A stretch of DNA of 64,000 bases from Pirellulaceae bacterium (GCA_963734865.1 CAVTIV010000022.1:74432-138431), one strand, 5' to 3'; counted from the first letter of the stretch, positions 3,644 through 55,558 are shown. Numbers and translations: made by a program. The notes: generated by a model from the letters alone, not told the origin.

Positions 3644-3798
3644 GATGAGCGAAAATCGAATTCGATCGTCGGTCTTGTAGACAATCAATCTCTTGCACCT
3701 TTCAACCAATAGGGCGACACGCTGGATCGTGAAATCCTACCATGGCCAAATGGAAGCAGCCACGCATCGTCGGTCGAACTGAAATAAAAGGGGAAATA

Positions 3799-3811
3799 AA
3801 AGGGACACCCA
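3799..3811. repeat. Left terminal inverted repeat AAAGGGACACCCA (copy 1)
   Basis: Reverse complement of the right end TGGGTGTCCCT at 5149-5159. Preceded by a local duplication of GAAATAAAAGGG (3781-3792 and 3793-3804). Confidence 0.75.
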
Positions 3812-3881
3812 TATATCTTGCAGATCGGGCCTGGGTCTGTTACGCTTGGCTTCGGTTCGCGACTCGCTCGGGAGATGTCTG

Positions 3882-4952
3882 ATGCCTCGCTTAGCTCGTC
3901 ATGATGTGATCGATCCGTCTCAGGTGCAGGTGCTGCACTGCGTGCAGAGGTGCGTGCGGAGGGCGTTTTTGTGCGGCGATGACGCCTACTCGGGACAATC
4001 CTTCGAGCACCGCCGGGGCTGGATCCGCCGACGGATGGAGTTCCTCGCTTCGGTCTTTGGCATCGATTGCCTGACCTACACCGTGATGCAAAACCATCTC
4101 CACGTGGTCCTCCGCAGCCGCGCCGATGTGGTGGCCTCCTGGAGCGACCAGGAAGTGGCCCGCCGCTGGTTGCGACTGTTCCCGCAGCGGCGCAACAAGG
4201 ATGGGACCCCAGCCGAACCGAAACAGCCGGAGATCGATAGGATCGTGAACCGACCCAAAGTGCTGGCCAATCGAAGAGAGCGTCTCAGTGATGTCAGTTG
4301 GTGGATGCGGTGCCTGGCCGAGAACATCGCCCGGATGGCCAACAAGGAAGACGAGTGTAGCGGCCGGTTTTGGGAAGGACGCTTCAAGTGCCAGTTGTTG
4401 CTTGATGAGGCATCGCTGTTGGCCTGTGCGGCTTACGTCGACCTCAATCCGATTCGTGCGGCCTTGGCCAAGACGCCCGAATCGAGCGACTACACCGGGG
4501 CCAAGGACCGTTTGGACGACCTGAAAGAATGGTCGGGTCGAACGCGGCCATCAACGCACGACTGGGAACGAAGTCGGCGACGAAAGCAAAGTGGTTGGTT
4601 GAGTCCGGTGGAGATCGATGAGCGATCCGATGCGACCGGACCTGATCTTGATTCAAGTGGACGACGTGCCAGCCGGAAAGGGTTCCTGTCGTTTTCGCTG
4701 TTGTCCTATGTCGAGTTGCTGGACTGGACCGGTCGTCAGCTTCGCGACGACAAGCGAGGAATGATCCCGGACCACTTGCAACCGATTCTGACCCGGATCG
4801 GCTTGGACGCGCCGGGTTGGTGTGATCTTGTGCGACGGTTTGGCAAGGTGTTCAAGCGAGCGGCCGGTGCGGCGGAGAGTCTGGCCGCCGAGGCGGAACG
4901 GCGCGGCCAGAGCTGGATGCAGTCTCCCGGCAACCCGTTGGTCGCCGCCTGA
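3882..4952 (+). CDS. Y1 (HUH) tyrosine transposase-like protein, IS200/RayT superfamily
   Basis: ATG 3882 lies 7 nt after GGGAG; the ORF is open from TTG 3846. HUH-like motif MQNHLHVVL. AYVDLNPIRAALAKTPESSDYTG resembles the conserved Y-region of REP-associated tyrosine transposases. An identical copy sits at 54277-55347. Confidence 0.7.
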   Translation: MPRLARHDVIDPSQVQVLHCVQRCVRRAFLCGDDAYSGQSFEHRRGWIRRRMEFLASVFGIDCLTYTVMQNHLHVVLRSRADVVASWSDQEVARRWLRLFPQRRNKDGTPAEPKQPEIDRIVNRPKVLANRRERLSDVSWWMRCLAENIARMANKEDECSGRFWEGRFKCQLLLDEASLLACAAYVDLNPIRAALAKTPESSDYTGAKDRLDDLKEWSGRTRPSTHDWERSRRRKQSGWLSPVEIDERSDATGPDLDSSGRRASRKGFLSFSLLSYVELLDWTGRQLRDDKRGMIPDHLQPILTRIGLDAPGWCDLVRRFGKVFKRAAGAAESLAAEAERRGQSWMQSPGNPLVAA

Positions 4953-4986
4953 GCGGCTCAGGCCGGTAATATCCCCCACACGATTC

Positions 4987-5016
4987 TCATGCCAGGTTCG
5001 TTTCATGCCAGGTTCG
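4987..5016. repeat. Direct repeat TCATGCCAGGTTCG x2 (16-nt period) in the element's 3' non-coding tail
   Basis: Units at 4987-5000 and 5003-5016. The same structure is in copy 2 at 55382-55411. Confidence 0.85.
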
Positions 5017-5148
5017 CCGCTGCGCGGTCTCCTCGGTCTTGGCAAATCACTGGCCCTACCGTCGCGTCCGGGTGTACCGGATTCGCCAGAGATTCCGAGC
5101 AAGCACTCTCGCCTCGTCCCCCCGTCGCGAATCGGCCAGTATACTTAT

Positions 5149-5159
5149 TGGGTGTCCCT
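5149..5159. repeat. Right terminal inverted repeat TGGGTGTCCCT (copy 1)
   Basis: Complement of 3801-3811. Copy 2 has the longer perfect match TGGGTGTCCCTTT (55544-55556). Confidence 0.75.
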
Positions 5160-5302
5160 GTATTGTTCTGCTTTCACCAAGTAGGTGCATTGCCAAATCA
5201 TGAAAGAGCGTGAATACGAAGCGATTCCGTTTTCGGCACCGAGGCGGGCGGTGGGCACGGTATAGAGCCCAAGACCTTTTTGAACTGACGAGCTTATTCG
5301 AA

Positions 5303-6076: not shown

Positions 6077-6164
6077 GCTTTGACGCGTTGAAACATCCGC
6101 TGCTGCTACTCTCGGGTGGTGCGGGCCGTTACATTACAAGCCGCAGCGTGACGGTGAATGGCGG

Positions 6165-7280: not shown

Positions 7281-7283
7281 CCA

Positions 7284-8420
7284 ATGACACGAACCAACCA
7301 ACGCTCACAAACGTTAGCCTCGCTGTTTTTGATCGTGCCGTGGCTCATCGTGTTTCCGCCCGGCGCAAATCGGTCTCGGGCCGACGACGGCGTCTTCCAG
7401 ACAATCATCGCTGCAGCAACGGACGAGAGTCCCCGGAACTCCGAAGGAGACGTTGTCGTGTTGGGGGACGGCTCTCTGTTGGCTGCCTGGACCGAGTTTT
7501 ACGGAGGTGCCCGGGACGATTCGGCGGCGCGGATTTCTGCGAAGCGTTCGACGGACGGGGGCAGGACGTGGGGCCAGCCATTTACGCTTCGCAACAACAC
7601 CGGAAAACAGAACGTGATGTCGGCAAGCTTTCTGCGACTTGCCAGTGGTGAATTGCTTCTTTTCTATCTGGAAAAACACTCCCGATCGGATCTCGATGGG
7701 ATCGTCGTTCGCTCCGATGATGACGGAAAGACTTGGAGCGAGCCCATTCTGATCACGCCGGAGGATGGCTATTTCGTCATGAACAACGCTCGCGTGATTC
7801 AGCTGAGCAGCGGGCGAATCGTGGCTCCGTTTGCTTACAGTCCGGAAGTTTGGAAAGCGGGAAACGTCTTTAAAACTGTCTGCTATTTCTCCGATGACCA
7901 CGGCAAGACATGGTCTCGCGGCAAAGGTGAATGCTCGGCCCCGAAACGTGGCGCCATGGAACCGGGCTTGATCGAAAAAGCAGACGGCACGGTGCTGCAG
8001 ACGATTCGCACCCAAATGGGCACTCAATGGTTCGCAGAATCAAAGGATGGTTGCGACACATGGAGCGAGGCCAAGCCATGGACAGTCGTGTCGCCCGAAG
8101 CGCCGGCAACGCTGGCGAAACTCCCCGGTGATCGTGGCTGGCTGGTGATCCACAATCCGACCCTTGACGCCAAGGACAGCCACAACGGCGTCCGGACGCC
8201 GCTGGTAGCCGCAGTTTCCAAAGACGAGGGGCAGACCTGGTCCGAACCCAAGTCGATCGAATCGAGCCCGGCCGACACCTATTCCTATGTGAGCGTTGGT
8301 TTCCATGAGGGGCGTGCTCTGATCACTTACTATGTGCGGCACGGCAGCGCCGATTTGCAGAAAGCGGGAAAAATCTCATGGAAATTCACGAGCGTGCCGC
8401 TGAATTGGTTCGAGCCATGA
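7284..8420 (+). CDS. Secreted BNR/Asp-box beta-propeller protein (sialidase-like)
   Basis: Hydrophobic N-terminus (LASLFLIVPWLIVFPP). Asp-boxes SKRSTDGGRTWGQP, SDDDGKTWSEP, SDDHGKTWS, SKDGCDTWSEA and SKDEGQTWSEP. Starts 3 nt after the M24 stop. Confidence 0.85.
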   Translation: MTRTNQRSQTLASLFLIVPWLIVFPPGANRSRADDGVFQTIIAAATDESPRNSEGDVVVLGDGSLLAAWTEFYGGARDDSAARISAKRSTDGGRTWGQPFTLRNNTGKQNVMSASFLRLASGELLLFYLEKHSRSDLDGIVVRSDDDGKTWSEPILITPEDGYFVMNNARVIQLSSGRIVAPFAYSPEVWKAGNVFKTVCYFSDDHGKTWSRGKGECSAPKRGAMEPGLIEKADGTVLQTIRTQMGTQWFAESKDGCDTWSEAKPWTVVSPEAPATLAKLPGDRGWLVIHNPTLDAKDSHNGVRTPLVAAVSKDEGQTWSEPKSIESSPADTYSYVSVGFHEGRALITYYVRHGSADLQKAGKISWKFTSVPLNWFEP

Positions 8421-10267
8421 TTGCCCATCGGAAGAACCGGCTGCGATCCGCTTGGGCGTGTACGCTGGTTGCGATCTGTATTGGTTCATCATCCTTCGCG
8501 GATCCTCCCAAGATGCTTTTCCAGGAGGGCACGATCAAGGATCCGGGAGCGGCCAGCGGCTCTCGAAGCGCTTTCGCCATCATGCGTCTGCCAGATGGAA
8601 GCTTTGCGTTCTACGATCGTTATGAACCCGAGAACGGGCCATTAACGCTGCCCGATGCCCAGCACCAGTTGCACGAATTGTTGCCTCACCTGCCGTCGCA
8701 GATTCTGCGAAGTAAAAGAATCATCACCAGCGGTGTGCTCAACAATACGCAAGTGATCCTGACGAGGGACAACGAAGTCAAGAGTGTGACCGTCCGCAGT
8801 GAAAGTCTCGACAAACAGTCCGCGGCCCGAGTGGGGCTGCCTCGATATCTGAACGTTTGGATTCAACGAGCGAACTTGAAGGAAGTCTTTGATCCGCTCA
8901 TGACTTGGCGCGGCTACAACGGCTCGCAGATGGAATACCAGCAGCTATCCTGCGGACGACTGCTCGTGCCTCATGGCAGCTTCAAGCCTCATGCGCGGGC
9001 CATTCCGCCCACGGGTCGGCATGAGACGGTCATTGAATACTCCGACGACGGTGGCACCACGTGGCAGTTAAGCAACTCACGACTGATCGCACCCTGTTAT
9101 CCGGGGTTCAATGGCTCGAATGAGGGCGCGTGTGAGCCGGCTTTCGAGGAATTGGCAGGTGGCAAAATATGGATGCTGATGCGAACCCAGGCAGGTTTTC
9201 TGTACGAATCTTACTCAGACGACCAAGGGAGGTCGTGGACACCGGCCCGCGCCAGTCGCTTCAATACTTCGACCGGACCTCCGAACATCATGCGTCATTC
9301 CAACGGCTGGCTCGTTCTCTGTTGGAACAATTGCGAAATGCCGCCAAGGGATGAGGGCGAAGGTGTCTACGGCGGGCGAGATGCCCTGCACATCGCCGTG
9401 TCGGCTGACGATGGCAAGACCTGGCGAGGCTTTCGAGAAATCTATTTGGATCCTCGACGCAATGACAATCCCGCGAAGTCGGGTGACCGGGGCACCGCGT
9501 ACCCGCTGGGCGCTTCCACGAGTGACGGAAAGCTGGTTGTTCTTGCAGGACAGGGCGAGGGTGGCCGCAATCCCATCCTGATCGATCCGGAATGGATTGT
9601 GGCGACCGAGGCGGAAACCGACTTTTCGGATGGTTTGCGGCAATGGTCCGTCTACAAACACTACGGTCCGGCGAAACGCTGGTGGCGAGCACGCGCGGAA
9701 GGTTGCGCATTGATCGCCAACCCGACCGCTGCAGATCATCAGTGCCTGAGTATTCGCAAACCGGATGAGCTTCCGGCCGACGGTGCCACCTGGAACTTCC
9801 CGAATGGCTGGAAGGGTTCGTTGGCCGCCAGGATCATGATCCGCGAAGGATTTCATGGCGGCGTCATCTGCCTGAACGATCGAATGTTCGATCCGACCAA
9901 TGCTCTTGGTGAGGAGTTTGCGGTCTTTCGGGCAGAGATCGGAGCCGATGGATCGGTTGGCGATGCAAAGCTGATTGCGGAAAAGTGGGGCACCGTCAGG
10001 TTCGATTGGGATCTCAGCAGCGAGACTTGCCGTTTGTCGGTGGATGGCCAAGATGCGGGCGAACTGGTTCTTCAGCATCCGACGCTCAACGGGCTGTCCT
10101 ACCTGCGTCTGCGTTCAGCGGCCAGTGAGCGTGACACAGCCGGTTATTTGGTCCAGCGCGTGCATGTCTCGATCAGCGACCCGTACGCAGTTGCCTGCAG
10201 CCCCGATGACCAATTTGCCCACGAGCAACGTTACATCCAAAGAATGGTTCCGCTCTGGAGTCAGTAG
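8417..10267 (+). CDS. Secreted BNR/Asp-box beta-propeller protein with a C-terminal beta-sandwich-like extension
   Basis: ATG 8417 overlaps the upstream TGA (ATGA, 8417-8420). Signal-like AWACTLVAICIGSSSFA. Asp-boxes YSDDGGTTWQLS, SDDQGRSWTPA and SADDGKTWRG. Confidence 0.8.
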   Translation: MIAHRKNRLRSAWACTLVAICIGSSSFADPPKMLFQEGTIKDPGAASGSRSAFAIMRLPDGSFAFYDRYEPENGPLTLPDAQHQLHELLPHLPSQILRSKRIITSGVLNNTQVILTRDNEVKSVTVRSESLDKQSAARVGLPRYLNVWIQRANLKEVFDPLMTWRGYNGSQMEYQQLSCGRLLVPHGSFKPHARAIPPTGRHETVIEYSDDGGTTWQLSNSRLIAPCYPGFNGSNEGACEPAFEELAGGKIWMLMRTQAGFLYESYSDDQGRSWTPARASRFNTSTGPPNIMRHSNGWLVLCWNNCEMPPRDEGEGVYGGRDALHIAVSADDGKTWRGFREIYLDPRRNDNPAKSGDRGTAYPLGASTSDGKLVVLAGQGEGGRNPILIDPEWIVATEAETDFSDGLRQWSVYKHYGPAKRWWRARAEGCALIANPTAADHQCLSIRKPDELPADGATWNFPNGWKGSLAARIMIREGFHGGVICLNDRMFDPTNALGEEFAVFRAEIGADGSVGDAKLIAEKWGTVRFDWDLSSETCRLSVDGQDAGELVLQHPTLNGLSYLRLRSAASERDTAGYLVQRVHVSISDPYAVACSPDDQFAHEQRYIQRMVPLWSQ

Positions 10268-10358
10268 CTTCGGCAGTCGATCGCGGCGCCTGCTATGCTC
10301 TTGGATGCCCGATAAACGCTCGAATAGAACCGTGTGTCGCAGGCATTTGGAGAAATCG

Positions 10359-12729
10359 ATGATGAAACACAGTCGCGCGCACCTGGTGACGCTGCTATTC
10401 CTGGTTACCGCTCACGCGTTCGCAGCCGATCCCGACGCGGCGATCGAAATCGGTGCGCGACGCGAACTGTTTGTGGATCGGTATTTGATTCAAAGTCTCG
10501 ATGGCGCGGAGTTGCAGTTGCATCATCCACAACCACGCGAGATCGCGCTCGTCCATGATTCGCCCTGGGAAGGAACCGGATCCGGTTATCACAGCATCTT
10601 TCGGGACGGCGACTTGTACCGAATGTATTACAAGGCATGGAATCTCGAGGTAACGCCCGACAAATTGAGCACTCGCTCGCCCTTGTACTGTTGTTATGCG
10701 GAGAGTGATGATGGCATCCACTGGCGCAAGCCAGATTTGGGGCTGCACGAATTCGATGGCTCGACGAAGAATAACATCGTGTTGGTGCCGGAAACCTACG
10801 GTCAGGCTGTCTCCGATCCCGGGCATTGCGCCGTGTTCAAGGACGACAACCCTGACGCAGGCGCGGACGCTCGGTACAAGGCAATCATCCGCGCCAAGAC
10901 GCCACATGGACTGTTGGCGTTGAAATCGCCCGACGGTTTCCATTGGACGTCAATCAGCGACCGCCCGGTGATTACCGACGGCGCATTCGATTCGCAGAAT
11001 CTTGCCTTCTGGGATTCAGGGAGTGGCCAATACCGAGCTTACTGGCGGTATTTCACCGCAGGCGTGACCAATGGTGACGAGTGGAAGCCCGGCGGCGTGC
11101 GGGCGATTCGAACGGCCACGTCAAAGGACTTCGTGAGTTGGAGCGATGGCAGTGATTTGGTCTACGTCGATTCACCAACAGAACAGCTCTACACGAACCA
11201 GATCAAGCCTTACCATCGAGCTCCGCATCTCTTGATCGGTTTTCCGACGCGCTACATCGATCGCGGCTGGTCGGATTCGATGCGAGCGTTGCCTGATCCG
11301 GAGCGCCGCCAATGGCGTGCGCGGGCGGAGCAGCGATATGGCACGGCGCTGACCGAGGCGTTGCTGATGAGCAGCCGTGATGGAGTGACATTCCATCGTT
11401 GGAATGAGGCATTCTTGCGTCCAGGCATCGAGCGACCGGGCACATGGCATTACGGCCAACAGTACGTTGCCTGGCACGCCGTCGAAACGGCATCGTCGTT
11501 CGAGGGGGCTCCCAATGAACTTTCGCTCTATGCCTCGGAAGGTTACTGGCATGGAAAAGGGAGCCAATTGCGACGATACACGCTGCGGCTGGATGGCTTC
11601 GCTGTCTGCCTCGGCAGGTTGGAACGGCGGCCGGCTATTGACTCGGCCTGTGATCTTTGACGGCGAACGATTGGAAATCAATTTTTCCACATCTGCGGCC
11701 GGTTCGCTGCGAGTGGAACTTCAAGATGTTGCCGGAAAACCAATCAGCGGATTCTCGCTTGCCGATTGCCCGGAACACTTCGGTGACTCGGTAGCACGAC
11801 CGGTCCGCTGGAGCGGTGATGGCGATCTTGCCCTGCTGGCTGGGTCGCCGGTACGGTTGCTTTTTGAGTTGAAGGATGCCGACTTGTATTCGTTTCAGTT
11901 TGTTTCAAAACCAAATCCATCCGTCGAAGCTTTCCAGCTCGATGCAGAAATGCGCCGCCGCTGCCTGGGCGTGCTTCGGGAAGCGATGCGTGCGGATGAT
12001 TTTTGGCCGGCGATTCATGCTGCCGAAGCATTGACATTGGCTGGCCAAGGCGAAGAGGTACGCGAGTTTTTGACGCCGAAGTTGAAAGCCGAGACCGACG
12101 ACCAAAAACGCTGTGGTCTGGCACGAGAACTCGTTCGCGCGGGGGACCGCGATCAGAGCGGTGTGATGATGGACATTCTTCGCAGTGCGGATCCTCATGG
12201 CCACGTGCACGCCGCCGAAAGCCTGTACAAAGTTGGCTGGGTCGGAGACGGCAAGCCGCTGGAATCAGCATTTGCCCAAAGCGACAACGTCCGACTGAGA
12301 ATCATGGCGGCTGCGGCGCTGGCAAAATATGGACAGGGCACGACGCGGACCGACGCCTTCGCTTTGCTTCGCTCGATTCTTCGCCACGAAGCTGACCCGG
12401 AGGTCTTTCGCCTTGCCGCATGGGTACTGGCCAGAATTGGCACGAGCGATGACGTCGCACTGATCAGGGATCGGCGCGATGACACGGACGACCAGCTCGT
12501 GTTGGCTTTTCTCGAGCACGCACTTGCGGCGCTGGGTGATGCGGCAGGACGAAAGGCCCTGATCGGCAATCTTGAATCGTCAGATCCCGCCATCCGTACT
12601 TATGCGGCCGTGTTTGCGGGGGAGTCGACCATCGTGGATGCGGCGCCGCTGCTGATTCGACAGCTGGAAGACGAAAACCGTGATGCACGCATTCGCGCGG
12701 CACAAGCCCTGCTCGTGCTGGCACAATGA
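10359..12729 (+). pseudogene. Secreted beta-propeller glycoside-hydrolase-like protein whose C-terminal domain runs on into a HEAT-repeat domain; frameshift near 11595-11605
   Basis: GGAG then ATG 10359 and signal MMKHSRAHLVTLLFLVTAHAFA. ORF 9975-11660 (f3) ends ...RRYTLRLDGF. Frame 1 (ORF 11404-12729) continues SLSASAGWNGGRLLTRPVIFDGERLEINFSTSAAGSLRVELQD...LKDADLYSFQF. About 270 aa of HEAT-like helical repeats follow (AIHAAEALTL..., IRTYAAVFAG..., ARIRAAQALL). Confidence 0.6.
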
Positions 12730-37847: not shown

Positions 37848-39267
37848 CGGTTCACGGTTCCCGTCATCCGGAACCATCATCCAATCCAACTACATTGGCG
37901 TTGATCGGTTTGGCAGCTCCGGCTTGGCCAACACGGACGGCGTTCAGGTGATTCAATCGGGACCATACATCAAAGCCAACGTGATCTCAGGCAACTCGGA
38001 CGATGGAATCGACATCATCGGCGGCGGACCTCCAACGGTAATCACCGGCAACATCATCGGCTTGGACTTTACCGGAACGATTGATATCGGCGGCAACGCC
38101 AGCGACGGCATCCAAGTCACCGATTCGGGATCCAACCAGGTAGGTGTTATTGGCGCAGGTGGCAACATCATTTCCGGAAACGGCGAGAACGGCATCTTGA
38201 TTTCGGGAACCGCCTCGATTGGTAACTGGATCGTCAACAATCGCATCGGTACCGACACGACGGGGACTCTGGATCGCGGGAACACGCTCAACGGTATCGC
38301 GATAGCGGGCAATTCCAGTGGAGTCATCATCGGCAGCAATGGCGATGGCAACTCGGATCCCGGCGAAGCAAATCTGATCAGCGGAAACAATGGTCACGGC
38401 GTTGCGGTCGCCTCGGCTGCCTCCGTTTCGATTGCCGGAAACCGAATTGGTACCAGCCTGAATGGGATCACACAGATTCCCAACGTCGGTGATGGCGTGT
38501 CGATCCAGTCATCAAGCGACGTCACCATTGGTGGGCTGGGCTCGTCGCAAGGGAATCAGATTGCCAACAACTTTGGCGGTGGCGTCGTCTCCCTTGGCAA
38601 CAGCAGCAGCGGTGTCTCTATTCGAGCCAACGAAATTGTCAACAACGTTGGTCTGGGAATTGACTTCGCAATCGCCGGAGTGTCGGTGAATGATCCAGGT
38701 GAGTCGGACGGCTTGCAGAACTTCCCGGCCCTGTCGGCAGCGCTGTCGGGCAGCACAACCGAGGTGACTGGATCGCTGACGAGCAGCCCTAACTCAACCT
38801 TCCAGATTGACTTTTACGCCAGCGACATTCGAGACAGTAGCAGTTTTGGCGAGGGGCAGCGCTATCTTGGCTCGACGAGCATCCTACTCGATGGCTCCGG
38901 ATACGGCGACATCAATGTGAGTGGTTTGGCGTCCACGCTGACGGGCGAATTCGTGACCGCGACCGCTACCGATGCAGCTGGTAATACATCCGAGTTCTCA
39001 TTGGCGCAGCAAACCACCTCGACCGCACCGCCAACCATTCTGCAAGACAGTTTATTGGTCACCGTCATCGACCAGGGAACCGAACAAGCAAACTTCGGAC
39101 TACCTACATTGATCGTCAACGAAGGGGACCTGTTATTCTTGACCGGCGATTTCGCCGACGCTGACAGCAGCGTCGCGGTATCCATCAATTGGGGTGATGG
39201 TCAAACAACGACGGATCCTGTGATTCGGCGAAGAGTCGTTCACCGGACAGCATGTTTATGCGGATGA
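37747..39267 (+). CDS. Giant-gene fragment: end of the beta-helix region plus the first PKD-like unit
   Basis: 506 aa. ANVISGNSDDGIDI..., GNIISGNGENGILI..., ending ...AVSINWGDGQTT. Frame lost near 39215. Confidence 0.65.
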   Translation: MRALESRLREHPASRLGAPRNVISGNAGPGVIVDGSRFPSSGTIIQSNYIGVDRFGSSGLANTDGVQVIQSGPYIKANVISGNSDDGIDIIGGGPPTVITGNIIGLDFTGTIDIGGNASDGIQVTDSGSNQVGVIGAGGNIISGNGENGILISGTASIGNWIVNNRIGTDTTGTLDRGNTLNGIAIAGNSSGVIIGSNGDGNSDPGEANLISGNNGHGVAVASAASVSIAGNRIGTSLNGITQIPNVGDGVSIQSSSDVTIGGLGSSQGNQIANNFGGGVVSLGNSSSGVSIRANEIVNNVGLGIDFAIAGVSVNDPGESDGLQNFPALSAALSGSTTEVTGSLTSSPNSTFQIDFYASDIRDSSSFGEGQRYLGSTSILLDGSGYGDINVSGLASTLTGEFVTATATDAAGNTSEFSLAQQTTSTAPPTILQDSLLVTVIDQGTEQANFGLPTLIVNEGDLLFLTGDFADADSSVAVSINWGDGQTTTDPVIRRRVVHRTACLCG

Positions 39268-39313
39268 TGATCCCAGCGAAAGCTCCAGTGACGTTTACGG
39301 AGTCGTCGTCAGG

Positions 39314-42300: not shown

Positions 42301-45300
42301 CTTCGGCGGTCCCGGCGACGACAGCATCGAAGGCTCCGGTGGCGACGACACGATCAGCGGTGGCGACGGTGACGACACGATCACCGGTGGCGACGGTGGC
42401 AATGAGTCAATCGATGGCGGCAGCGGCGACGATACGATCACTGCTGGCGCTGGCCCTGGTGATACGATCTTCGGGGGCCCCGGCGACGACAGCATCGAAG
42501 GCTCTGGCGGTGACGACACGATCAGCGGCGGCGACGGTGACGACACGATCACCGGCGGCGACGGTGGCAACGAGTCGATCGATGGCGGCAGCGGCGACGA
42601 TACCATCACTGCCGGCGCTGGCCCTGGTGATACGATCTTTGGCGGCCCGGGCGACGACAGCATCCAAGGCACCGGCGGAAGTGACACAATCAGCGGCGGC
42701 GACGGTGATGACACGATCGTTGGCGGCGATGGCGGTAGTGAGTCGATCGATGGCGGCAGCGGTGACGACACAATTACCAGTGGCGCCGGCCCTGGTGATA
42801 CGATCTTTGGCGGTCCCGGCGACGACAGCATCCAAGGCAGCGGTGGCGACGACACCATGGTTGGCGGCGACGGTGACGACACGATCATCGGCAGCGATGG
42901 TGGTGGTGAGTCGATCGATGGCGGCAGTGGTGACGACACGATTGTTGGCGGTGATGGCCCCGACGACACGATCTTTGGCGGACCTGGCGACGATAGCATC
43001 CAAGGCAGCGGCGGTGCCGACACAATCATCGGCGGTGACGGTGATGACACCATCACCGGTGGCGAGGGTGGCGGCGAGTCGATCGATGGCGGCAGTGGTG
43101 ACGACACGCTTTCGTCCGGGGGAGGGATTGGCGACACGATTTTCGGCGCCGCCGGTAACGATCTGGTCATCCTGGCAAGCGGATCGGTGAAGATTTTCGG
43201 TGATGACGACGTCACCAACGATCCGATCAGCGATGATCGGATCCTGATCCAAGCGGACGCGGACATCCGAATTGTCACCGGAGTGCAGAACAACCAGGCG
43301 ACGGTTACTGTGAACGGAGTTGCGGTCGCCGATCTTACCGACGTTGACGCGGCATTGCTCGTTGGCGGAGCCGGCAATAATGTGTTGGACGCTTCGATGT
43401 TTAACGGCGACGCGGGACTCGTCGGCGCAGCCGGCGACGACACACTCCTTGGTGGCAGTGGTAACGATACGCTCGAAGGCGGCCCTGGAAACGATTCACT
43501 CGCCGGCGGCGACGGTGATGATACCTATCTCTTTACCGGCTTGGATCTCGGTGTTGACGTGGTCGACGAAGTGGCCGATCAATCGAACGATACGCTGGAC
43601 TTCTTTGGTCTGTTGTCGACGATCGATATCGATCTCTCACGGGTCGATCTTCAGACCGTAGCGGTAGGGAACCTGCAGTTGCAACTGACCAGTCCGAATG
43701 CGATCGAGAGCGTGATCGGAACGGTCTTCTCCGACAAGTTACTTGGAAACGATCGGAATAACATACTGGTCGGCGGAGGCGGGTTGGATTCAATTTACGG
43801 CGCCGCCGGCGACGATTACTTGACCGCCTCGCGCACGCGGTATGTCTTCTTGGACTTCGATTCGCAAACCGATGGCGCCGAACATATCTACACGCCAAGC
43901 GAGCGAAATGCAATTCAAGCCCGATTGGAGCAGGACTTTGGGATGTTTGACGTGGTCATCAGTCAAACGGTGCCCGTCGGCGAGATCTTCATTGCGGTCG
44001 AGTTCAATCACCCGCCAATCGTCAATGGCAAGGCGATTTCCGGTGGGATATCCGATCGTATCGGCTTCCGCGATCTGGCTCGTGGCGGGACGGTTCAAGT
44101 TGATGTCAATGGTTTCTTGGGAAATGGCACGAACCAGTTGCCGCCGGAGGAGCAGAACTTCGTGTCGCTCTCCTCGACCATTGCGTCGCACGAGTTGGCT
44201 CACATGTATGGTTTGCGACATTTCGATGCACTGGGCGCACCGGGTAAAGGCGTCTTCGCGGCACTGGGAGGGAATGTATTCTTGCCGTCGTTCGGCGGAC
44301 CAGCAGCGGCTGAAGAAACCGCCGATCACCTGATCGCATCTCCACTTTCGGTTCGCACGACGCTGACCGACGCCCTACATGATCCATACTTTGGTGAGCG
44401 GGAAGCGCTGAAGTTGGCCTTTGGCGACACTGGCGAAGCGTTCGTCGAACGACCCAACGCAGAGAAGACAGACTTGGTGACGATCAACGGCGTGGTCCAT
44501 CCAGCGCAATCGATCGGCAGTTTACCAGCCTTGGCGGTGCCGAACACGATCGAGAATCCGAATGCGGAAAACTTTGCCGTACCATTAGATGCCGCAGCTG
44601 CCGCCGTCGTGGGAATGATCGAACTCGATGGCCCTACCAGTGAGAGCGATTTCTATTCGTTCACAGGTCAAGCCAATCAGTTGGTGACGATCGAAGTCAT
44701 GTCGCGGTCACTTCGATCCCGGATCGCGAACACGATTGATTCGCTAGTGCGAATTTACGACGCCAACGGTACTAAACTCAATTACTACGGAAGCCCACTC
44801 GGTGCATTCAATGACGACGGATTCGAGCCGACCGATTCAATTCTGATTGATGTACTGTTGCCCGCCGACGGAGCTTATTACGTCGAAGTCGATACGTTCA
44901 ATTTCTTCACGGAAGAGTTTTCCGTTTACTTGCCCAACTTCGATGTCAATTCGTTTTGCAGTAGCGATCCAGGCCACATCGGCTGTACCGATACAGACAC
45001 CGGCCAATATGAACTGCTGATCTATCGTTTCGAATCAGGCGTGAGCCAGGCCAGTGGCGATACGTTGATCGGGGGTGCAGGTGATGACACCTTGGTCGGT
45101 TCGTCGGGCAACGACGTATTCTTTTCCGATGGCGGAGATACCTTCGCCGGGCCTGGATCGCCGGCAACCGTCGTCATCAATCACCCGCCGCTCCTAGACC
45201 CGATTGCTGATCAGCAAGTGAACGAGCTGGAACTACTGCAATTCAATGTCACCGCAACCGATCCAGATCAAGGCGATACGCTTCAATATCGCCTGCTACC

Positions 45301-47665
45301 TGCCGGTGGGACAACAGTATTCCCGGCCGGTGCCGTGATCGATCCAAGTACCGGTGCGGTCACTTGGACTCCGCAAGACAATGGTATTTTCGAGGCTATC
45401 GTTGAAGTCTCCGACTTGCACGGGCTAACCGCAAGCGAGTCGGTCATCATCACCGTGGTTAACATTGATATTTCCGTCACGATCACAGGCATTACCGGAG
45501 ATTTAGAAGAGGGGAGTCAGGTCACGATTGACGGGTTCGCAGATGACCCCAGCGGCAACGCAACAACAATCACTCTGACATACGAGGTCTTTCGCAGTGG
45601 CCTGTTGATTGCTGCCGATTCAGGAGTCGATTTGGCCAGTCTGACTTTCACTCCAGAGGATGACGGTGAATATGACATCCGCTTGACTGCCGGCGGGAAC
45701 AATGGTGAGAGCGATGTTGCTCTGCAAACGATCACGATTGCAAACGTTGCTCCCGCTTTTAACGCCGGGCCGAATGAGACGCTTCCGTCCTCGGCCGAAG
45801 GTCTGTTCAGCCGGTTGCTCAGCTTTTCCGATCCAGGGAACGACGTGTGGTCTGGAACTGTCAATTACGGCGACTCGGCCACGAACTTTCCGCTGGCAAT
45901 CAACCAGATCGCCAAGGAGTTTGACCTAACCCACACCTATATAGCGGAGGGTATTCATACAGTGACCGTAACGGTCGATGATGGTGATTCCGGTGGGGTG
46001 GACGTTGAAACGTTCGACGTGACGGTAATACTGAATTCGCCGCCGGTCATTGATCCTCAGAGTTTTCACATTGACGAAAACCAGACGACCGTCGGTGCGA
46101 TTGCCGCGACCGACCCTGATTTGCCCGGTGATACGCTGGCGTTCTCGATTACCGGCGCTGGCCCGGACGATGCCAGATTTTCGATTACTACTGCGGGAAT
46201 GTTGAGTTTTATCGCCGCGCCCGATTACGAGGACCCTAACGACATCGGCGGGTCAGTCGGCGACAGCATCTATCTGGTGCAAGTTGAAGTCATTGACGAC
46301 GCAGGCGAAAGTGATACGGCGAACATCACGGTCACAGTCGATCCGGTCAACGATCTGGCGCCGGTGTTCACATCGGCCGCCGCGGCCAACGTGGCTGAGA
46401 ACACCACGGCAGTGCTAACGATCTCGGCGACCGATGGCGATTCGCCGGTACAGACGGTCAGTTTCTCGATCAGCGGCAATGGCGCCGACGACGCCAGATT
46501 CCAGATCACCGGCGGCAATCAGCTCGTCTTCATCGCCGCTCCCGATTTTGAGACACCGACCGACGCCAACGCCGACAACGTCTACGAAGTGGAACTGGTC
46601 GCTGACGACGGCAACGGTCTGACGACTTTGCAGACGGTCACAGTCACGGTCGACCCGGTCAACGATCTGGCGCCGGTGTTCACATCGGCCGCCGCGGCCA
46701 ACGTGGCTGAGAACACCACGGCAGTGCTAACGATCTCGGCGACCGATGGCGATTCGCCGGTACAGACGGTCAGTTTCTCGATCAGCGGCAATGGCGCCGA
46801 CGACGCCAGATTCCAGATCACCGGCGGCAATCAGCTCGTCTTCATCGCCGCTCCCGATTTTGAAACGCCGCTCGATGCCAACGCCGACAACGTCTACGAA
46901 GTGGAACTGGTCGCTGACGACGGCAACGGTCTGACGACTTTGCAGACGGTCACGGTCACGGTCGACCCGGTCAACGATTTGGCGCCGGTGTTCACATCGG
47001 CCGCCGCGGCCAACGTGGCTGAAAACACCGCGGCAGTGCTAACGATCTCGGCGACCGATGGCGATTCGCCGGCGCAGACGGTCAGTTTCTCGATCAGCGG
47101 CAACGGCGCCGACGATACCAAGTTCGAGATCACCGGCGGCAATCAGCTCGTCTTCATCGCCGCTCCCGATTTTGAAACGCCGCTCGACGCCAATGCCGAC
47201 AACGTCTACGAAGTGGAACTGGTCGCTGACGACGGCAACGGTCTGACGACATTGCAGACGGTCACGGTCACGGTCGACCCGGTCAACGATCTGGCGCCGG
47301 TGTTCACATCGGCCGCCGCGGCCAACGTGGCTGAAAACACCACGGCAGTGCTAACGATCTCGGCGACCGATGGCGATTCGCCGGCGCAGACGGTCAGTTT
47401 CTCGATCAGCGGCAATGGCGCCGACGATGCCAAGTTCGAGATCACCGGCGGCAATCAGCTCGTCTTCATCGCCGCTCCCGACTTTGAAACGCCGCTCGAT
47501 GCCAACGCCGACAACGTCTACGAAGTGGAACTGGTCGCTGACGACGGCAACGGGCTGACGACATTGCAGACGGTCACGGTCACGGTCGACCCGGTCAACG
47601 ACTCGCGCCGGTGTTCACATCGGCCGCCGCGGCCAACGTGGCTGAGAACAGCACGGCGGTACTAA
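39314..47665 (+). CDS. Giant-gene fragment (2783 aa): PKD-like units, 12 RTX-type units, metzincin motif, PPC-like domain, cadherin-like repeats
   Basis: HTVEIDWGDGGG and SVTVDFGDGSAP (PKD-like). GGxGxD nonapeptide arrays. HELAHMYGLRH. ELDGPTSESDFYSFTGQANQLVTIEV (PPC-like). ...VDPVNDLAPVFTS...ENT.AVLTISATDGDSP (cadherin-like). It begins inside a PKD-like unit (VTDTDGSGAAVIGITVKNVPAQV), so it has no N-terminus of its own. Confidence 0.8.
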   Translation: MTDTDGSGAAVIGITVKNVPAQVDSFGFDANTINEGQVATLTGTFSDPGTGDDHTVEIDWGDGGGNETFLIPQGDRLFSLEHMYDDDGDYDVRFSVFDDDRDPGLPDPGDVGFSYDIIDQIEVLNVAPTATINAQANAIEGQTIKISATVSDDGAADTFTYAWLIKLNGQGVASSALPNFDFTPAIEGIYDVALVVSDDEHATYATSTTINVTNDAPTILPSNITISVDGVATASVQEGTEISLQGVFTDAGLSDIHSVTVDFGDGSAPVVTVVEFGDRHFRDIRHTYADDPAGLNDNYLITVTMDDGDQTSSATVPLEVRNADPIVSIRSDRITAATVRLVADIQDAGILDTHTIEWFVNGAPVAGTKIVSVPRPVGTALDVLFRATDDDGGQGTVTANYFVLDDAANTVTITDGVGGQVSVAVDGQPPAVFIPKDQILIATGGGDDRVTVDPAVTTNIQIDAGAGDDSIITASGNDTLIGGSGDDTLVAGPGDDLLESIAGDDLLDGGTGDDQYRFNHFSDKILVDSEGSDTLNFEAVAEDSDSTGGISIDLGIDDGSPQPVRSNGTVALYGDFENVIGSAYSDQIVGSDQPNEIFGGPGDDSIEGSGGDDTIAGGDGDDTLIGGADGGDSIDGGSGDDTIVSGSGSDDTIFGGPGDDSIQGSGGDDTISGGEGNDTIVGGDSGGESIDGGSGDDTITSGGGPGDTIFGGPGDDSIAGSGGNDTIVGGDGNDTITGGNSDTVTGASGGESITGGTGDDTITSGSGSGDTIFGGPGDDSIEGSGGDDTISGGDGDDTINGGDGGNESIDGGSGNDTITSGGGPGDTIFGGPGDDSIEGSGGDDTISGGEGDDTIVGSDGGNESIDGGSGDDTITSGGGPGDTIFGGPGDDSIEGSGGDDTISGGDGNDTITGGDGGNESIDGGSGDDTITSGGGPGDTIFGGPGDDSIEGSGGDDTISGGDGDDTITGGDGGNESIDGGSGNDTITSGGGPGDTIFGGPGDDSIEGSGGDDTISGGDGDDTITGGDGGNESIDGGSGDDTITAGAGPGDTIFGGPGDDSIEGSGGDDTISGGDGDDTITGGDGGNESIDGGSGDDTITAGAGPGDTIFGGPGDDSIQGTGGSDTISGGDGDDTIVGGDGGSESIDGGSGDDTITSGAGPGDTIFGGPGDDSIQGSGGDDTMVGGDGDDTIIGSDGGGESIDGGSGDDTIVGGDGPDDTIFGGPGDDSIQGSGGADTIIGGDGDDTITGGEGGGESIDGGSGDDTLSSGGGIGDTIFGAAGNDLVILASGSVKIFGDDDVTNDPISDDRILIQADADIRIVTGVQNNQATVTVNGVAVADLTDVDAALLVGGAGNNVLDASMFNGDAGLVGAAGDDTLLGGSGNDTLEGGPGNDSLAGGDGDDTYLFTGLDLGVDVVDEVADQSNDTLDFFGLLSTIDIDLSRVDLQTVAVGNLQLQLTSPNAIESVIGTVFSDKLLGNDRNNILVGGGGLDSIYGAAGDDYLTASRTRYVFLDFDSQTDGAEHIYTPSERNAIQARLEQDFGMFDVVISQTVPVGEIFIAVEFNHPPIVNGKAISGGISDRIGFRDLARGGTVQVDVNGFLGNGTNQLPPEEQNFVSLSSTIASHELAHMYGLRHFDALGAPGKGVFAALGGNVFLPSFGGPAAAEETADHLIASPLSVRTTLTDALHDPYFGEREALKLAFGDTGEAFVERPNAEKTDLVTINGVVHPAQSIGSLPALAVPNTIENPNAENFAVPLDAAAAAVVGMIELDGPTSESDFYSFTGQANQLVTIEVMSRSLRSRIANTIDSLVRIYDANGTKLNYYGSPLGAFNDDGFEPTDSILIDVLLPADGAYYVEVDTFNFFTEEFSVYLPNFDVNSFCSSDPGHIGCTDTDTGQYELLIYRFESGVSQASGDTLIGGAGDDTLVGSSGNDVFFSDGGDTFAGPGSPATVVINHPPLLDPIADQQVNELELLQFNVTATDPDQGDTLQYRLLPAGGTTVFPAGAVIDPSTGAVTWTPQDNGIFEAIVEVSDLHGLTASESVIITVVNIDISVTITGITGDLEEGSQVTIDGFADDPSGNATTITLTYEVFRSGLLIAADSGVDLASLTFTPEDDGEYDIRLTAGGNNGESDVALQTITIANVAPAFNAGPNETLPSSAEGLFSRLLSFSDPGNDVWSGTVNYGDSATNFPLAINQIAKEFDLTHTYIAEGIHTVTVTVDDGDSGGVDVETFDVTVILNSPPVIDPQSFHIDENQTTVGAIAATDPDLPGDTLAFSITGAGPDDARFSITTAGMLSFIAAPDYEDPNDIGGSVGDSIYLVQVEVIDDAGESDTANITVTVDPVNDLAPVFTSAAAANVAENTTAVLTISATDGDSPVQTVSFSISGNGADDARFQITGGNQLVFIAAPDFETPTDANADNVYEVELVADDGNGLTTLQTVTVTVDPVNDLAPVFTSAAAANVAENTTAVLTISATDGDSPVQTVSFSISGNGADDARFQITGGNQLVFIAAPDFETPLDANADNVYEVELVADDGNGLTTLQTVTVTVDPVNDLAPVFTSAAAANVAENTAAVLTISATDGDSPAQTVSFSISGNGADDTKFEITGGNQLVFIAAPDFETPLDANADNVYEVELVADDGNGLTTLQTVTVTVDPVNDLAPVFTSAAAANVAENTTAVLTISATDGDSPAQTVSFSISGNGADDAKFEITGGNQLVFIAAPDFETPLDANADNVYEVELVADDGNGLTTLQTVTVTVDPVNDSRRCSHRPPRPTWLRTARRY
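41102..43138 (+). repeat. 168-bp (56-aa) tandem repeat, 12 units (one of 189 bp), RTX/hemolysin-type Ca-binding sequence
   Basis: ATCTT(T/C)GGCGG(T/C)CC anchors at 41102, 41270, 41438, 41627 and then every 168 bp to 42971. Unit: IFGGPGDDSIEGSGGDDTISGGDGDDTITGGDGGNESIDGGSGDDTITSGGGPGDT. Confidence 0.9.
44189..44221 (+). other. HEXXHXXGXXH zinc-metalloprotease (metzincin-type) motif: HELAHMYGLRH
   Basis: In frame in ORF 39314-47665 (CAC at 44189). A PPC-like beta-sandwich segment follows about 130 aa later. Confidence 0.6.
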
Positions 47666-52658: not shown

Positions 52659-52754
52659 CTATTGCTTGCGGATCTTGCGGATCAACTGGCAACCGTAATG
52701 TTCGATCTCCAGCAAGTTTGCATACTCTTTCATTCGGTCATGCTAAGGCAAGGT

Positions 52755-54077
52755 TTATCGTCCCTCGGAGTTTTCTCGCGTCTTCGGTTTGATGAACAGC
52801 ACCTCGCCTCGCTCGATCCATCCCTTTCGCAGATCCACCCGGAACCAGCCCTCGCTGTTTTTCGGTTGGAAGCGGACAGGAGATCGCGGCCCGAACTCGG
52901 CCAGGTCGTACTCGGCCCAGGTCTTGCCCAAGTCGAGTGAGATGGCGATGCCCGTGGCGTACGTCGATGCGGGGGCGCAGTGGCCGGCTAGGATCACGCC
53001 GTCTTCGATGATCATGTTGGCCATTTCGAATTCCGCGTCGAACAGCAAAGTGTGCTTCATTGGATCGGCGAGATCCGCTGGATCGCAGCGAAAAATGCCG
53101 CGGTCGTGTTTCTCGTTGGGCAACTTGGGACCGTTCGCGTCCGCAGCCCAGTAAAGCTGACCATCGACGAAGCTGATGCCGCCGGACTTGTATCGTGAGT
53201 TCGAGTTGACGGACACCAGCACCTGCCAGTCCCAGTTGTCACCTCGCGCGTCATACACGCCGCGCAGCCAGTGGCATTCATTCCCGTGTCCGCGATCGAT
53301 GTCCCCGGTGCAGGCGTAGAACGCGCGTTCGGCTGGATTATAGGCCACGGAGTGAATGTGCCGGCAGATGACCGGGTTGCCAGGATCGCCGAGGTACGAC
53401 TCGGGATCGGTGCCCTTCTCCTGGAAATGCGGATTCCGGCCGAAGGAATAGGCGATCTTGACCGTCTGTCCGTTGTCGGTCGAGTAGTAGATATTCACCG
53501 GCACCGGCCCGCCGAGCACGTTGCAGTAGTTGCCCCACACGAGCATTTCGGAGCCATCGATGTCCCACGTGTGAACGCCGTCGAGCGGATGGAAATACCA
53601 ACCGGGCTGATCCGGATTCTGGGGCGTATGAGGAAGGTAATCGCGGCCCTCGCGATTCTTGACAATGATCTGCCGGTATGTCTTGAGATTATCGGTGCTG
53701 AGGAACAGTTTCTCTCGCGTAGCGAAGAGAATGTTCCCGTTTTTCAGCAGGCAACTGAAGGTAATGTTCTCCGCTTCGGGAAACGCCGCGCTGTGAGCCC
53801 AAGTGTGACCATTGTCCTCGGACAGAAAGATCTTCCCGTCGCCGAATCCAAAGGCCTTGTGGTCGCGCTGCGAATCGATGTAAGGCCCTTCCGGAGCGAG
53901 CCGGCACCAGAAGTCGTCGGTTTCGCGGATCGGTGTGTTCGCGGCAAGCAGCGGGAAGGTGCTTGGAATGAGCACGCCGCCGACAGTGGCGGTAGCGGCC
54001 CTACCGAGAAACCGGCGGCGGTTGAGATGGGATTGGAGGTTGATGGTAATTTTCCTTAGGTAAGGGTTCGGTCTCAC
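52755..54077 (-). CDS. Tat-signal BNR/Asp-box beta-propeller protein (sialidase-like)
   Basis: RRRFLGRAATATVGG twin-arginine motif. Asp-box-like SEDNGHTWA, STDNGQTV and SLDLGKTWAEY. GTG start at 54077. Confidence 0.7.
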   Translation of the reverse strand: MRPNPYLRKITINLQSHLNRRRFLGRAATATVGGVLIPSTFPLLAANTPIRETDDFWCRLAPEGPYIDSQRDHKAFGFGDGKIFLSEDNGHTWAHSAAFPEAENITFSCLLKNGNILFATREKLFLSTDNLKTYRQIIVKNREGRDYLPHTPQNPDQPGWYFHPLDGVHTWDIDGSEMLVWGNYCNVLGGPVPVNIYYSTDNGQTVKIAYSFGRNPHFQEKGTDPESYLGDPGNPVICRHIHSVAYNPAERAFYACTGDIDRGHGNECHWLRGVYDARGDNWDWQVLVSVNSNSRYKSGGISFVDGQLYWAADANGPKLPNEKHDRGIFRCDPADLADPMKHTLLFDAEFEMANMIIEDGVILAGHCAPASTYATGIAISLDLGKTWAEYDLAEFGPRSPVRFQPKNSEGWFRVDLRKGWIERGEVLFIKPKTRENSEGR

Positions 54078-54187
54078 CGGCTTGTCGCATTCGTCTTATC
54101 CGACGGCCAACTCGCCACGGGCCTGCGGCGTCACACATCCTACGACGCATTACAGCAGCGGCACAAGCAACGAAAGGGAAAACAAAA

Positions 54188-55558
54188 GAAATAAAAGGGA
54201 CACCCATAGATCTTGCAGATCGGGCCTGGGTCTGTTACGCTTGGCTTCGGTTCGCGACTCGCTCGGGAGATGTCTGATGCCTCGCTTAGCTCGTCATGAT
54301 GTGATCGATCCGTCTCAGGTGCAGGTGCTGCACTGCGTGCAGAGGTGCGTGCGGAGGGCGTTTTTGTGCGGCGATGACGCCTACTCGGGACAATCCTTCG
54401 AGCACCGCCGGGGCTGGATCCGCCGACGGATGGAGTTCCTCGCTTCGGTCTTTGGCATCGATTGCCTGACCTACACCGTGATGCAAAACCATCTCCACGT
54501 GGTCCTCCGCAGCCGCGCCGATGTGGTGGCCTCCTGGAGCGACCAGGAAGTGGCCCGCCGCTGGTTGCGACTGTTCCCGCAGCGGCGCAACAAGGATGGG
54601 ACCCCAGCCGAACCGAAACAGCCGGAGATCGATAGGATCGTGAACCGACCCAAAGTGCTGGCCAATCGAAGAGAGCGTCTCAGTGATGTCAGTTGGTGGA
54701 TGCGGTGCCTGGCCGAGAACATCGCCCGGATGGCCAACAAGGAAGACGAGTGTAGCGGCCGGTTTTGGGAAGGACGCTTCAAGTGCCAGTTGTTGCTTGA
54801 TGAGGCATCGCTGTTGGCCTGTGCGGCTTACGTCGACCTCAATCCGATTCGTGCGGCCTTGGCCAAGACGCCCGAATCGAGCGACTACACCGGGGCCAAG
54901 GACCGTTTGGACGACCTGAAAGAATGGTCGGGTCGAACGCGGCCATCAACGCACGACTGGGAACGAAGTCGGCGACGAAAGCAAAGTGGTTGGTTGAGTC
55001 CGGTGGAGATCGATGAGCGATCCGATGCGACCGGACCTGATCTTGATTCAAGTGGACGACGTGCCAGCCGGAAAGGGTTCCTGTCGTTTTCGCTGTTGTC
55101 CTATGTCGAGTTGCTGGACTGGACCGGTCGTCAGCTTCGCGACGACAAGCGAGGAATGATCCCGGACCACTTGCAACCGATTCTGACCCGGATCGGCTTG
55201 GACGCGCCGGGTTGGTGTGATCTTGTGCGACGGTTTGGCAAGGTGTTCAAGCGAGCGGCCGGTGCGGCGGAGAGTCTGGCCGCCGAGGCGGAACGGCGCG
55301 GCCAGAGCTGGATGCAATCTCCCGGCAACCCGTTGGTCGCCGCCTGAGCGGCTCAGGCCGGTAATATCCCCCACACGATTCTCATGCCAGGTTCGTTTCA
55401 TGCCAGGTTCGCCGCTGCGCGGTCTCCTCGGTCTTGGCAAATCACTGGCCCTACCGTCGCGTCCGGGTGTACCGGATTCGCCAGAGATTCCGAGCAAGCG
55501 TTCTCGCCTCGTCCCCCCGTCGCGACTCGGCCAGTTTACTTATTGGGTGTCCCTTTAT
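54188..55558 (+). mobile_element. Copy 2 of the 1.37 kb Y1/HUH-transposase element
   Basis: See copy 1. Inverted termini AAAGGGACACCCA (54194-54206) and TGGGTGTCCCTTT (55544-55556). Same orientation as copy 1. Confidence 0.8.
54277..55347 (+). CDS. Y1 (HUH) tyrosine transposase-like protein, copy 2
   Basis: Protein identical to 3882-4952. The track ORF 54082-55347 is longer only because the upstream flank happens to be open. Confidence 0.7.
   Translation: MPRLARHDVIDPSQVQVLHCVQRCVRRAFLCGDDAYSGQSFEHRRGWIRRRMEFLASVFGIDCLTYTVMQNHLHVVLRSRADVVASWSDQEVARRWLRLFPQRRNKDGTPAEPKQPEIDRIVNRPKVLANRRERLSDVSWWMRCLAENIARMANKEDECSGRFWEGRFKCQLLLDEASLLACAAYVDLNPIRAALAKTPESSDYTGAKDRLDDLKEWSGRTRPSTHDWERSRRRKQSGWLSPVEIDERSDATGPDLDSSGRRASRKGFLSFSLLSYVELLDWTGRQLRDDKRGMIPDHLQPILTRIGLDAPGWCDLVRRFGKVFKRAAGAAESLAAEAERRGQSWMQSPGNPLVAA

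Follow-up and report, generated by a model that had tools for sequence, protein, structure and literature searches.

A probable insertion sequence-like TIRtron with a Y1 transposase gene, present as two near-identical copies in the genome of a Pirellulaceae bacterium

TIRtrons are formed by TIRYT genes, which resemble the genes of repetitive extragenic palindromic (REP)-associated tyrosine transposases (RAYTs) and are flanked by terminal inverted repeats; many of these repeats share the motif GGGGWSAS, and some of them form dimers or clusters (Di Nocera et al. 2013, PMC3733652). For the planctomycete R. baltica, the same study notes a 'plethora' of genes for tyrosine transposases that are flanked by repeats (PMC3733652). 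Proteins of the TnpA-Y1 subclass 2.3 have a median length of 325 aa, the motifs NHYH, WE and YVDLNP and a 55-aa insertion between β3 and αC (Quentin et al. 2018, PMC6006769). They further possess a two-part C-terminal tail, are encoded by 3.9 copies per genome without REP-like structures and are prevalent in Alteromonadales and Chromatiales (PMC6006769). Within the literature searched, the terms TIRtron and TIRYT occur in these two studies only. Here, we describe a 1371-bp element, which is present in two near-identical copies in a 64,000-nucleotide stretch of DNA from a Pirellulaceae bacterium (GCA_963734865.1 CAVTIV010000022.1:74432-138431; the window in the following, with positions counted from its first letter). 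The element fits the TIRtron/TIRYT class and resembles TnpA-Y1 subclass 2.3, of which its protein is, judging by sequence, a likely member; it does not qualify as a REPtron or as a classical IS200 element. In our preferred reading, to which we assign a probability of about 0.75, it is an insertion sequence-like TIRtron with a TIRYT-type Y1 gene for a protein of 356 aa, the pair in the window goes back to two insertions of a multi-copy element, and the bracketing of the DNA between them is incidental.

The two copies lie about 50 kb apart on the + strand and form a direct repeat at an offset of 50395, copy A occupying positions 3793-5163 and copy B positions 54188-55558. An earlier note on this DNA, which was made from the sequence of the window, had reported this collinearity, and it is borne out by an alignment of 3650-5300 with 54045-55695 and by a base-by-base comparison: identity starts at 3793, decays after 5160-5163 and is at the random level in the flanks on both sides. 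Copy A comprises a left terminal repeat, the transposase gene, a 3' non-coding region of 211 nt and a right terminal repeat. Seven positions differ between copies A and B within the unit (3814 T/G, 4922 G/A, 5105 A/G, 5106 C/T, 5131 A/C, 5141 A/T and 5160 G/T). The single difference in the coding sequence (4922/55317) is synonymous, as had been stated before, and the 356-aa translations of the two copies are identical. In addition, the earlier note had counted about six differences in the last 65 bp; five of them lie inside the unit, but the others belong to the ragged edge beyond it, and the difference at 3814 had been missed. The two copies occupy different sequence contexts, and the aligned flanks of both lack a visible target-site duplication, in agreement with the previous description. 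The whole unit has been copied in the manner of an insertion sequence, and the two copies would represent two insertions into intergenic DNA.

The transposase gene, which is TIRYT-like, starts with an ATG at position 3882 and extends to 4952 in copy A; in copy B, it spans 54277-55347 (both + strand). Its 356-aa product (P0241) is recorded on one contig of 213,011 bp. As judged from its sequence and a structural model, the protein is a relative of the Y1 (HUH/tyrosine) transposases. It contains the HUH motif NHLH (N71-H72-L73-H74), which is located on strand E73-80 of the model, the motif FWEGRF and the tyrosine motif YVDLNP (185-190). The residues H72, H74, Y185, N189 and P190 are invariant in an alignment with 32 homologues, in which the query carries one extra N-terminal residue and the numbering is therefore one higher. 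The NCBIfam model REP_Tyr_transpos matches residues 152-213, that is, the YVDLNP region, with an E-value of 2.6e-9, and a sequence-profile search of the PDB yielded nothing at E <= 1. When the AlphaFold model, which was built from the homologue alignment, was compared with the PDB using Foldseek, the best 29 matches were all Y1 enzymes, including a Sulfolobus IS200-type transposase, IS608, ISDra2 and the E. coli protein TnpA-REP (4ER8); their probabilities ranged from 0.93 to 1.00 and their target TM-scores from 0.36 to 0.64 (mostly above 0.5), with E-values of just 0.009-0.25. Five helices (82-157) separate the HUH strand of the model from the next core strand (165-173), and around 165 residues follow the tyrosine motif; the transposase is a divergent Y1 member with insertions. 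The catalytic motifs and the fold matches thus uphold the assignment to the Y1 transposases that had been made in the earlier note.

Both copies of the unit end in inverted sequences, AAAGGGACACCCA on the left and TGGGTGTCCCT(T/G)T on the right. Copy A carries its left terminal inverted repeat, AAAGGGACACCCA with the core GACACCCA, at 3799-3811 on the + strand; the same motif lies around 85 nt upstream of the gene in four related loci (L037, L038, L082 and L083). The right repeat of copy A (5149-5161, - strand), which reads TGGGTGTCCCTGT on the + strand, is complementary to the left one at 12 of 13 positions. In copy B, the left repeat, again AAAGGGACACCCA, is found at 54194-54206 (+ strand) and the right repeat, TGGGTGTCCCTTT, at 55544-55556 (- strand), with complementarity at all 13 positions. 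The terminal repeat can be written as the pattern AAGGGACACCCA. The sequence GGGACACCC occurs four times in the 64-kb window, each time at an element end, compared to an expected count of 0.59, and is absent from the remaining 61 kb; none of 100 shuffled sequences reached a count of four. The ends of the element would accordingly be terminal inverted repeats of 13 to 16 bp, whose core GACACCCA probably is the conserved end signal of the family.

In the earlier note, this arrangement had been interpreted as a REPtron, that is, a RAYT gene flanked by REP sequences, which it disperses throughout the genome. Consistent with this, short inverted motifs flank the gene, one source labels homologues RayT, the REP_Tyr_transpos model is matched weakly, and the sequence GGG-ACA-CCC, a GGG/CCC mini-stem of 3 bp and the sole possible stem at the ends, could make a mini-hairpin. 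However, the termini are not palindromic REPs. On both strands, the ends fold like shuffled sequences (z-scores from -0.9 to +0.8), with no subterminal hairpins beyond chance, and neither a GTAG/CGTC-tagged palindrome nor a GTAG-tagged stem-loop is present at the ends. Furthermore, the motif is not dispersed: it does not occur in the 61 kb of the window outside the copies, and in 678 kb of related DNA it keeps to the vicinity of family genes, with 35 of 39 near-exact matches no more than 800 bp away from one, a zone that makes up 27% of this sequence. In addition, the gene itself is multi-copy. We therefore give the REPtron interpretation very little credence; the TIRtron/TIRYT class and subclass 2.3 match instead. 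The inverted repeats, the absence of hairpins and the length of the protein (356 aa) with its YVDLNP motif also led us to reject a classical IS200/IS605 element.

Further features were observed in and next to the unit. The 12 nucleotides directly outside the left end of copy A (3781-3792, + strand), GAAATAAAAGGG, are an exact copy of the first 12 nucleotides of the element (3793-3804), and the window reads GAAATAAAAGGG GAAATAAAAGGGACACCC from 3781 to 3804; the terminal repeat's outer half occurs twice here, and comparable duplications of the outer half-motif are found in L037 (3890-3930), L038 (40-75) and L029 (2497 and 5922). The 3' non-coding part of copy A contains a 12-nt direct repeat, ATGCCAGGTTCG, which occurs twice with a spacing of 4 nt (4989-5016), and the palindrome CCGGGTGTACCGG (5068-5080), which includes the terminal core with one mismatch (GGGTGTACC vs GGGTGTCCC); both are found at the same place in copy B. 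A sigma-70 promoter scan gave no match by the criteria of the scan, and TTGCAG-N17-TACGCT at 3818-3846 is hence not claimed as a promoter, although TTGCAGATC is conserved in L038, L082 and L083.

The inverted termini recur in relatives whose proteins share between 89% and 37% identity with the protein of the window, and the common core of these termini is GACACCCA. Since they recur, the unit boundaries proposed in the earlier note, which hinged on the presence of the termini in other copies, hold. The non-coding DNA of L037 (81% protein identity) is divergent, yet AAAAGGGACACCCAT is found before the gene and its complement after it, and a second copy of the inverted repeat is located 268 bp further downstream. 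L038 (89%) possesses three direct repeat copies upstream of the gene, and in L035 an inverted copy lies downstream of a gene that is truncated by the end of the contig. More distant members have inverted repeats of their own with a related core, namely GAACGGGGACAGGGCAC in Rubripirellula obstinata as well as AAATAGGACACCCACA and AAAAGGACAGGCATCT, and a perfect 15-bp inverted pair, TGACACCCACCACTA, is found in Pseudoalteromonas piscicida. Among 35 near-full-length genes with sufficient flanking sequence, a relaxed form of the core was found in forward orientation within 300 nt upstream of 26 genes and in reverse orientation upstream of two, and within 600 nt downstream it was inverted for 18 genes and forward for none; the wrong orientations serve as internal control of this count. 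For the strict core GACACCCA in the 35 genes, the corresponding numbers are 12 forward and two reverse upstream, and nine inverted and none forward downstream. Presumably, the transposase recognises the GACACCCA-containing repeat and, because the repeats are inverted, would meet its recognition sequence on opposite strands at the two ends of the element. By analogy with the solved Y1 enzymes IS608, ISDra2 and TnpA-REP, Tyr185 would then nick single-stranded DNA at or near the repeat via a 5'-phosphotyrosine link, His72 and His74 would hold the metal, and the DNA would be resealed without target duplication, as by other Y1 enzymes.

A sister element encoding the protein P0243 (90% identity) occurs twice in one sample, at the unrelated loci L082 and L083, and the proteins of the two are identical. 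The DNA identity between these loci sets in precisely at the innermost left repeat. Arrays of the repeat are found in both: L082 possesses seven or more direct copies upstream and three inverted copies downstream of the gene (2700-2930 and 4340-4400), and L083 has two copies upstream and at least six inverted copies downstream (4300-4500). Such arrays, which are also seen in L038 (40-140), consist of up to around seven copies, direct upstream and inverted downstream, with a spacing of around 24 to 43 bp, and they resemble iterons or REP clusters. In published work, subclass 2.3 is described without REP-like flanks, and the wider RAYT-like class without formal evidence for mobility. A broader proposal, which we regard as possible rather than probable, is that Y1 genes of the subclass 2.3 type are bona fide autonomous insertion sequences, whose ends are short inverted repeats; the core of these, (G)GACACCCA, would be conserved across phyla and point forward at the left end and in the inverted direction at the right one. 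Repeat arrays and duplicated half-sites would then be by-products of strand cutting and copying, for example in a one-ended or rolling-circle-like manner, which starts from the left repeat and terminates imprecisely on the right.

The family to which the transposase belongs is large. More than 7,900 proteins match it in a collection clustered at 90% identity, with the best matches in Pirellulaceae (Rhodopirellula, Rubripirellula, Crateriforma and Rosistilla), and the source labels of the homologues read 'transposase', 'Transposase IS200-like domain-containing protein' and 'RayT' or 'REP element-mobilizing transposase RayT'. An exhaustive search returned 1,407 clusters at 50% identity with E <= 1e-30 and 11,584 clusters with E <= 0.001. 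Using tblastn against plasmid and chromid records, 'transposase' genes with 40-44% identity over around 90% of the protein were found in Pseudoalteromonas, Shewanella, Catenovulum, Photobacterium and Vibrio. A variant that differs from the protein of the window by two amino acids, P0246, is encoded on another contig of 1.53 Mb, which presumably belongs to the same assembly as the window. Furthermore, many homologues are located on contigs of 1.2 to 1.6 kb with repeat arrays at the contig start or end, and local clustering is common: family genes and fragments lie near each other in L001, L022, L047, L060 and L028.

Several individual loci were noted in this context. L001, a contig of a metagenome-assembled genome, carries two full family genes in tandem, which are 2.4 kb apart, and a C-terminal fragment (88-1164, 2470-3534 and 4716-5069); between these family genes lies a different, classical-looking RAYT gene (3785-4537) with the motifs LLPEHLHCLW and WQRRYWEH. 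In L029 (5922-6588), a unit of around 670 bp is bounded by the forward and inverted repeat variants ACGGGGCACCCA and AAGGGCCACCCA and retains just the residues 1-118 and 294-345 of the gene; it seems to be a non-autonomous derivative with an internal deletion and both repeats. L093 contains a truncated family gene (7732-8118; residues 3-137, 42% identity) 1.9 kb upstream of an orthologue (84%) of the 440-aa BNR/sortilin-like gene of the window. Copy B is located on the same side of the 440-aa gene as this fragment, which may be a coincidence or may reflect a recurrent landing zone. An unannotated gene for a 356-aa protein in L088 was ruled out as a family member by tblastn.

The repeat arrays look like clustered protein-binding sites, and the mosaic identity of the copies, which is described below, shows that recombination acts on them. 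Both observations would also suit a domesticated, non-mobile RAYT-like host gene with its binding sites, whose copies arose by segmental duplication or gene conversion. However, the duplicated unit in the window ends at inverted repeats, as does the left edge of identity between L082 and L083, and near-identical copies are found in unrelated contexts. Moreover, there are around four copies per genome in subclass 2.3, and truncated and internally deleted copies, such as those mentioned above, are typical of decaying insertion sequences. Domestication thus appears unlikely to us. The insertion sequence-like TIRtron nevertheless has to be weighed against several observations that count against it. 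The identity between L082 and L083 stops around 88 nt past the stop codon, well short of the right repeats. The score of the REP_Tyr_transpos match is 37 bits, compared to an NCBIfam cut-off of 80; the Pfam family Y1_Tnp gave no match, and a Pfam search at E <= 0.1 returned nothing at all. The AlphaFold model has a mean predicted local distance difference test (pLDDT) value of 60, with 70-94 in the core. The relaxed core pattern used for the orientation counts was derived in part from some of the tested loci. Finally, neither a transposition event nor a circle or an empty site was observed, and the copies were counted in the window and in related contigs.

The differences between copies A and B are not evenly distributed. 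Of the seven, five fall in the last 57 nt of the unit and one at a distance of 22 nt from the left end, and the 1,290-nt core contains a single change; the right-terminal segment (5105-5163), which harbours the five, is divergent, and a scan-statistic simulation of the clustering gave p ~2e-4. This clustering at the ends suggests that the cores were homogenised by gene conversion, either within the pair or with a third copy as donor, and that the copies are older than their cores look. According to this scenario, the cores (around 3815-5104) would have been converted after insertion and the terminal segments left more divergent. The pair L082/L083 shows the same mosaic pattern in a stronger form. 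Since the identity of this pair does not extend to the right repeats, copying of the right end may be unfaithful, or conversion instead of transposition may explain part of the identity. Alternatively, the mosaic may result from copying that starts at the left repeat and has an imprecise end. Under either explanation recombination acts on the repeats, and it is therefore plausible, as far as the sequence can tell, that the direct repeat of 1.3 kb, which is 99.9% identical, is a substrate for the deletion or excision of the interval of around 50 kb or for its release as a circle. The same homology that would serve conversion could, in principle, allow this.

Between the two copies lie 49 kb of DNA (5164-54187) with genes for a short-chain dehydrogenase/reductase, an M24 peptidase, BNR/sialidase-like proteins, a pyridoxal phosphate-dependent enzyme and a methyltransferase, a giant repeat/RTX-type locus, and genes for a Ser/Thr kinase and a BNR/sortilin-like protein. 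These genes are of ordinary planctomycete chromosomal types. In the earlier note, the arrangement had been compared to a composite transposon, in which case both copies would cooperate to move or excise a block of 51.8 kb (3793-55558) as a composite transposon or mobilisable island. The bracketing of this block by two direct, near-identical copies would agree with such a role, as would its accessory-looking cargo with the giant RTX/repeat locus and a catabolic cluster. Yet the block is not surrounded by a duplication, and there is nothing in common between the DNA upstream of 3793 and that downstream of 55558. The composition, for which the earlier note had suggested a k-mer comparison of the interior with the flanks, does not indicate a foreign island either: the GC content is flat, and the tetranucleotide profiles inside (without the giant locus) and outside correlate with r = 0.96, compared to 0.89-0.94 for inside pieces among themselves. 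The giant repetitive locus is the sole tetranucleotide outlier, because of its own repeats. In addition, BNR/sialidase-type genes are found on either side of copy A, and there is no integrase, relaxase, transfer or phage gene among the interior open reading frames that were scanned. Single-strand transposases of the Y1 type are not known to form composite transposons. Dispersed copies, which would make the bracketing a coincidence, are found in part: the sister element is present at two unrelated loci and the two-residue variant on another contig, and family genes and fragments often cluster locally. The dispersal of the family, the variant P0246 on its 1.53-Mb contig and the local clustering render the bracketing less significant. 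Taken together, a composite transposon is highly unlikely; in the reading of two independent insertions, the bracketing of the 49 kb would most likely be incidental and due to local hopping or chance.

The synteny comparisons at the two junctions were uninformative. At junction A, orthologues of the outer-left beta-lactamase/BNR gene with 89%, 83% and 81% identity have unrelated neighbours. The contigs with the 89% orthologue all stop around 290 nt upstream of the gene, and their upstream DNA does not align to the window. Three independent short-read assemblies with this orthologue (L089, L090 and L092) break at the same base, position 1, around 290 nt upstream; the sequence at the break is not the GGGACACCC repeat, and the coincidence suggests a repeat or a strain-variable junction. 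At junction B, the 84% orthologue of the 440-aa inner-right gene shares no neighbours with the window. The stretch from 16516 to 49776 (+ strand), which had been described as a single giant gene, is not one open frame; it consists of at least 20 stop-to-stop frames in all three phases, with overlaps and in-frame stops, and its largest piece spans 39224-47665. The giant locus is either a decayed pseudogene or an assembly with many indel errors. The open reading frames 8378-10267, 9975-11660 and 11404-12729 overlap in a similar way, and split genes are also present in related contigs with long-read-style names, for instance, the sulfatases in L093.

If subclass 2.3-type genes are indeed autonomous insertion sequences, the substrate would be defined for a whole branch of the HUH transposases. 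The window provides a clean example of a TIRYT-type element that appears to have been copied as a whole together with its inverted repeats, and the window and its relatives point to GACACCCA as the end signal of a large family, that is, to a concrete substrate for binding and cleavage assays. For the host genome, the pair of 1.3-kb direct repeats could drive the deletion or excision of around 50 kb.

In comparison with composite transposons of the Tn5/Tn10 type, the window shares the bracketing of a gene block by two copies of one element; those transposons, however, use DDE transposases that act on the outer inverted ends and flank the whole unit with a target duplication, and the window shows none of these features. 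The IS200/IS605 elements IS608 and ISDra2 have the same fold and are likewise multi-copy single-gene Y1 elements without target duplication, but they possess subterminal hairpins instead of inverted repeats and a TnpA of around 150 aa with a Y--(N/E)Q motif, whereas the element of the window has inverted repeats of 13-16 bp and encodes a 356-aa protein with Y---NP. REPtrons and their RAYTs (TnpA-REP, 4ER8) have the combination of HUH motif and Y---NP core, the inverted short flanking motifs and the lack of a target duplication in common with the window; in contrast to them, the window element lacks palindromic REPs and a dispersed REP/REPIN population, and its gene is multi-copy and copied with its ends.

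The resemblance to subclass 2.3 comprises the WE (FWEGRF) and YVDLNP motifs, the long insertion that follows the HUH strand and the protein's long C-terminal tail, a length of around 325 to 356 aa, several copies per genome, the absence of REP-like hairpins and an identity of 40-44% to members of the Alteromonadales. The protein of the window departs from the subclass in its HUH motif, which is NHLH instead of NHYH, and in its host, which is a planctomycete rather than a member of the Chromatiales or Alteromonadales. Moreover, the subclass has been described without REP-like flanks (PMC6006769), and terminal repeats were not found described there, whereas the sampled members, including the one from Pseudoalteromonas, possess inverted repeats of the GACACCCA type. 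Most published TIRYTs belong to subclass 2.1 and have a helix-turn-helix or DnaA-like C-terminus, whereas the protein of the window looks like a member of subclass 2.3; in addition, the core of its family is extended to GACACCCA, and the published work is without near-identical copies of a whole unit. As in TIRtrons, however, a RAYT-like Y1 gene is flanked by terminal inverted repeats and not by REP hairpins, and the repeats occur in dimers or clusters (compare L038, L082 and L083). The segment AGGGACAC of the window repeat agrees with GGGGWSAS at 7/8 positions in a comparison with the motif itself, and the repeat of L002, GGGGACAG, agrees with it at 8/8. The element of the window is not a new kind of system; it adds a member to a known, little-studied class.

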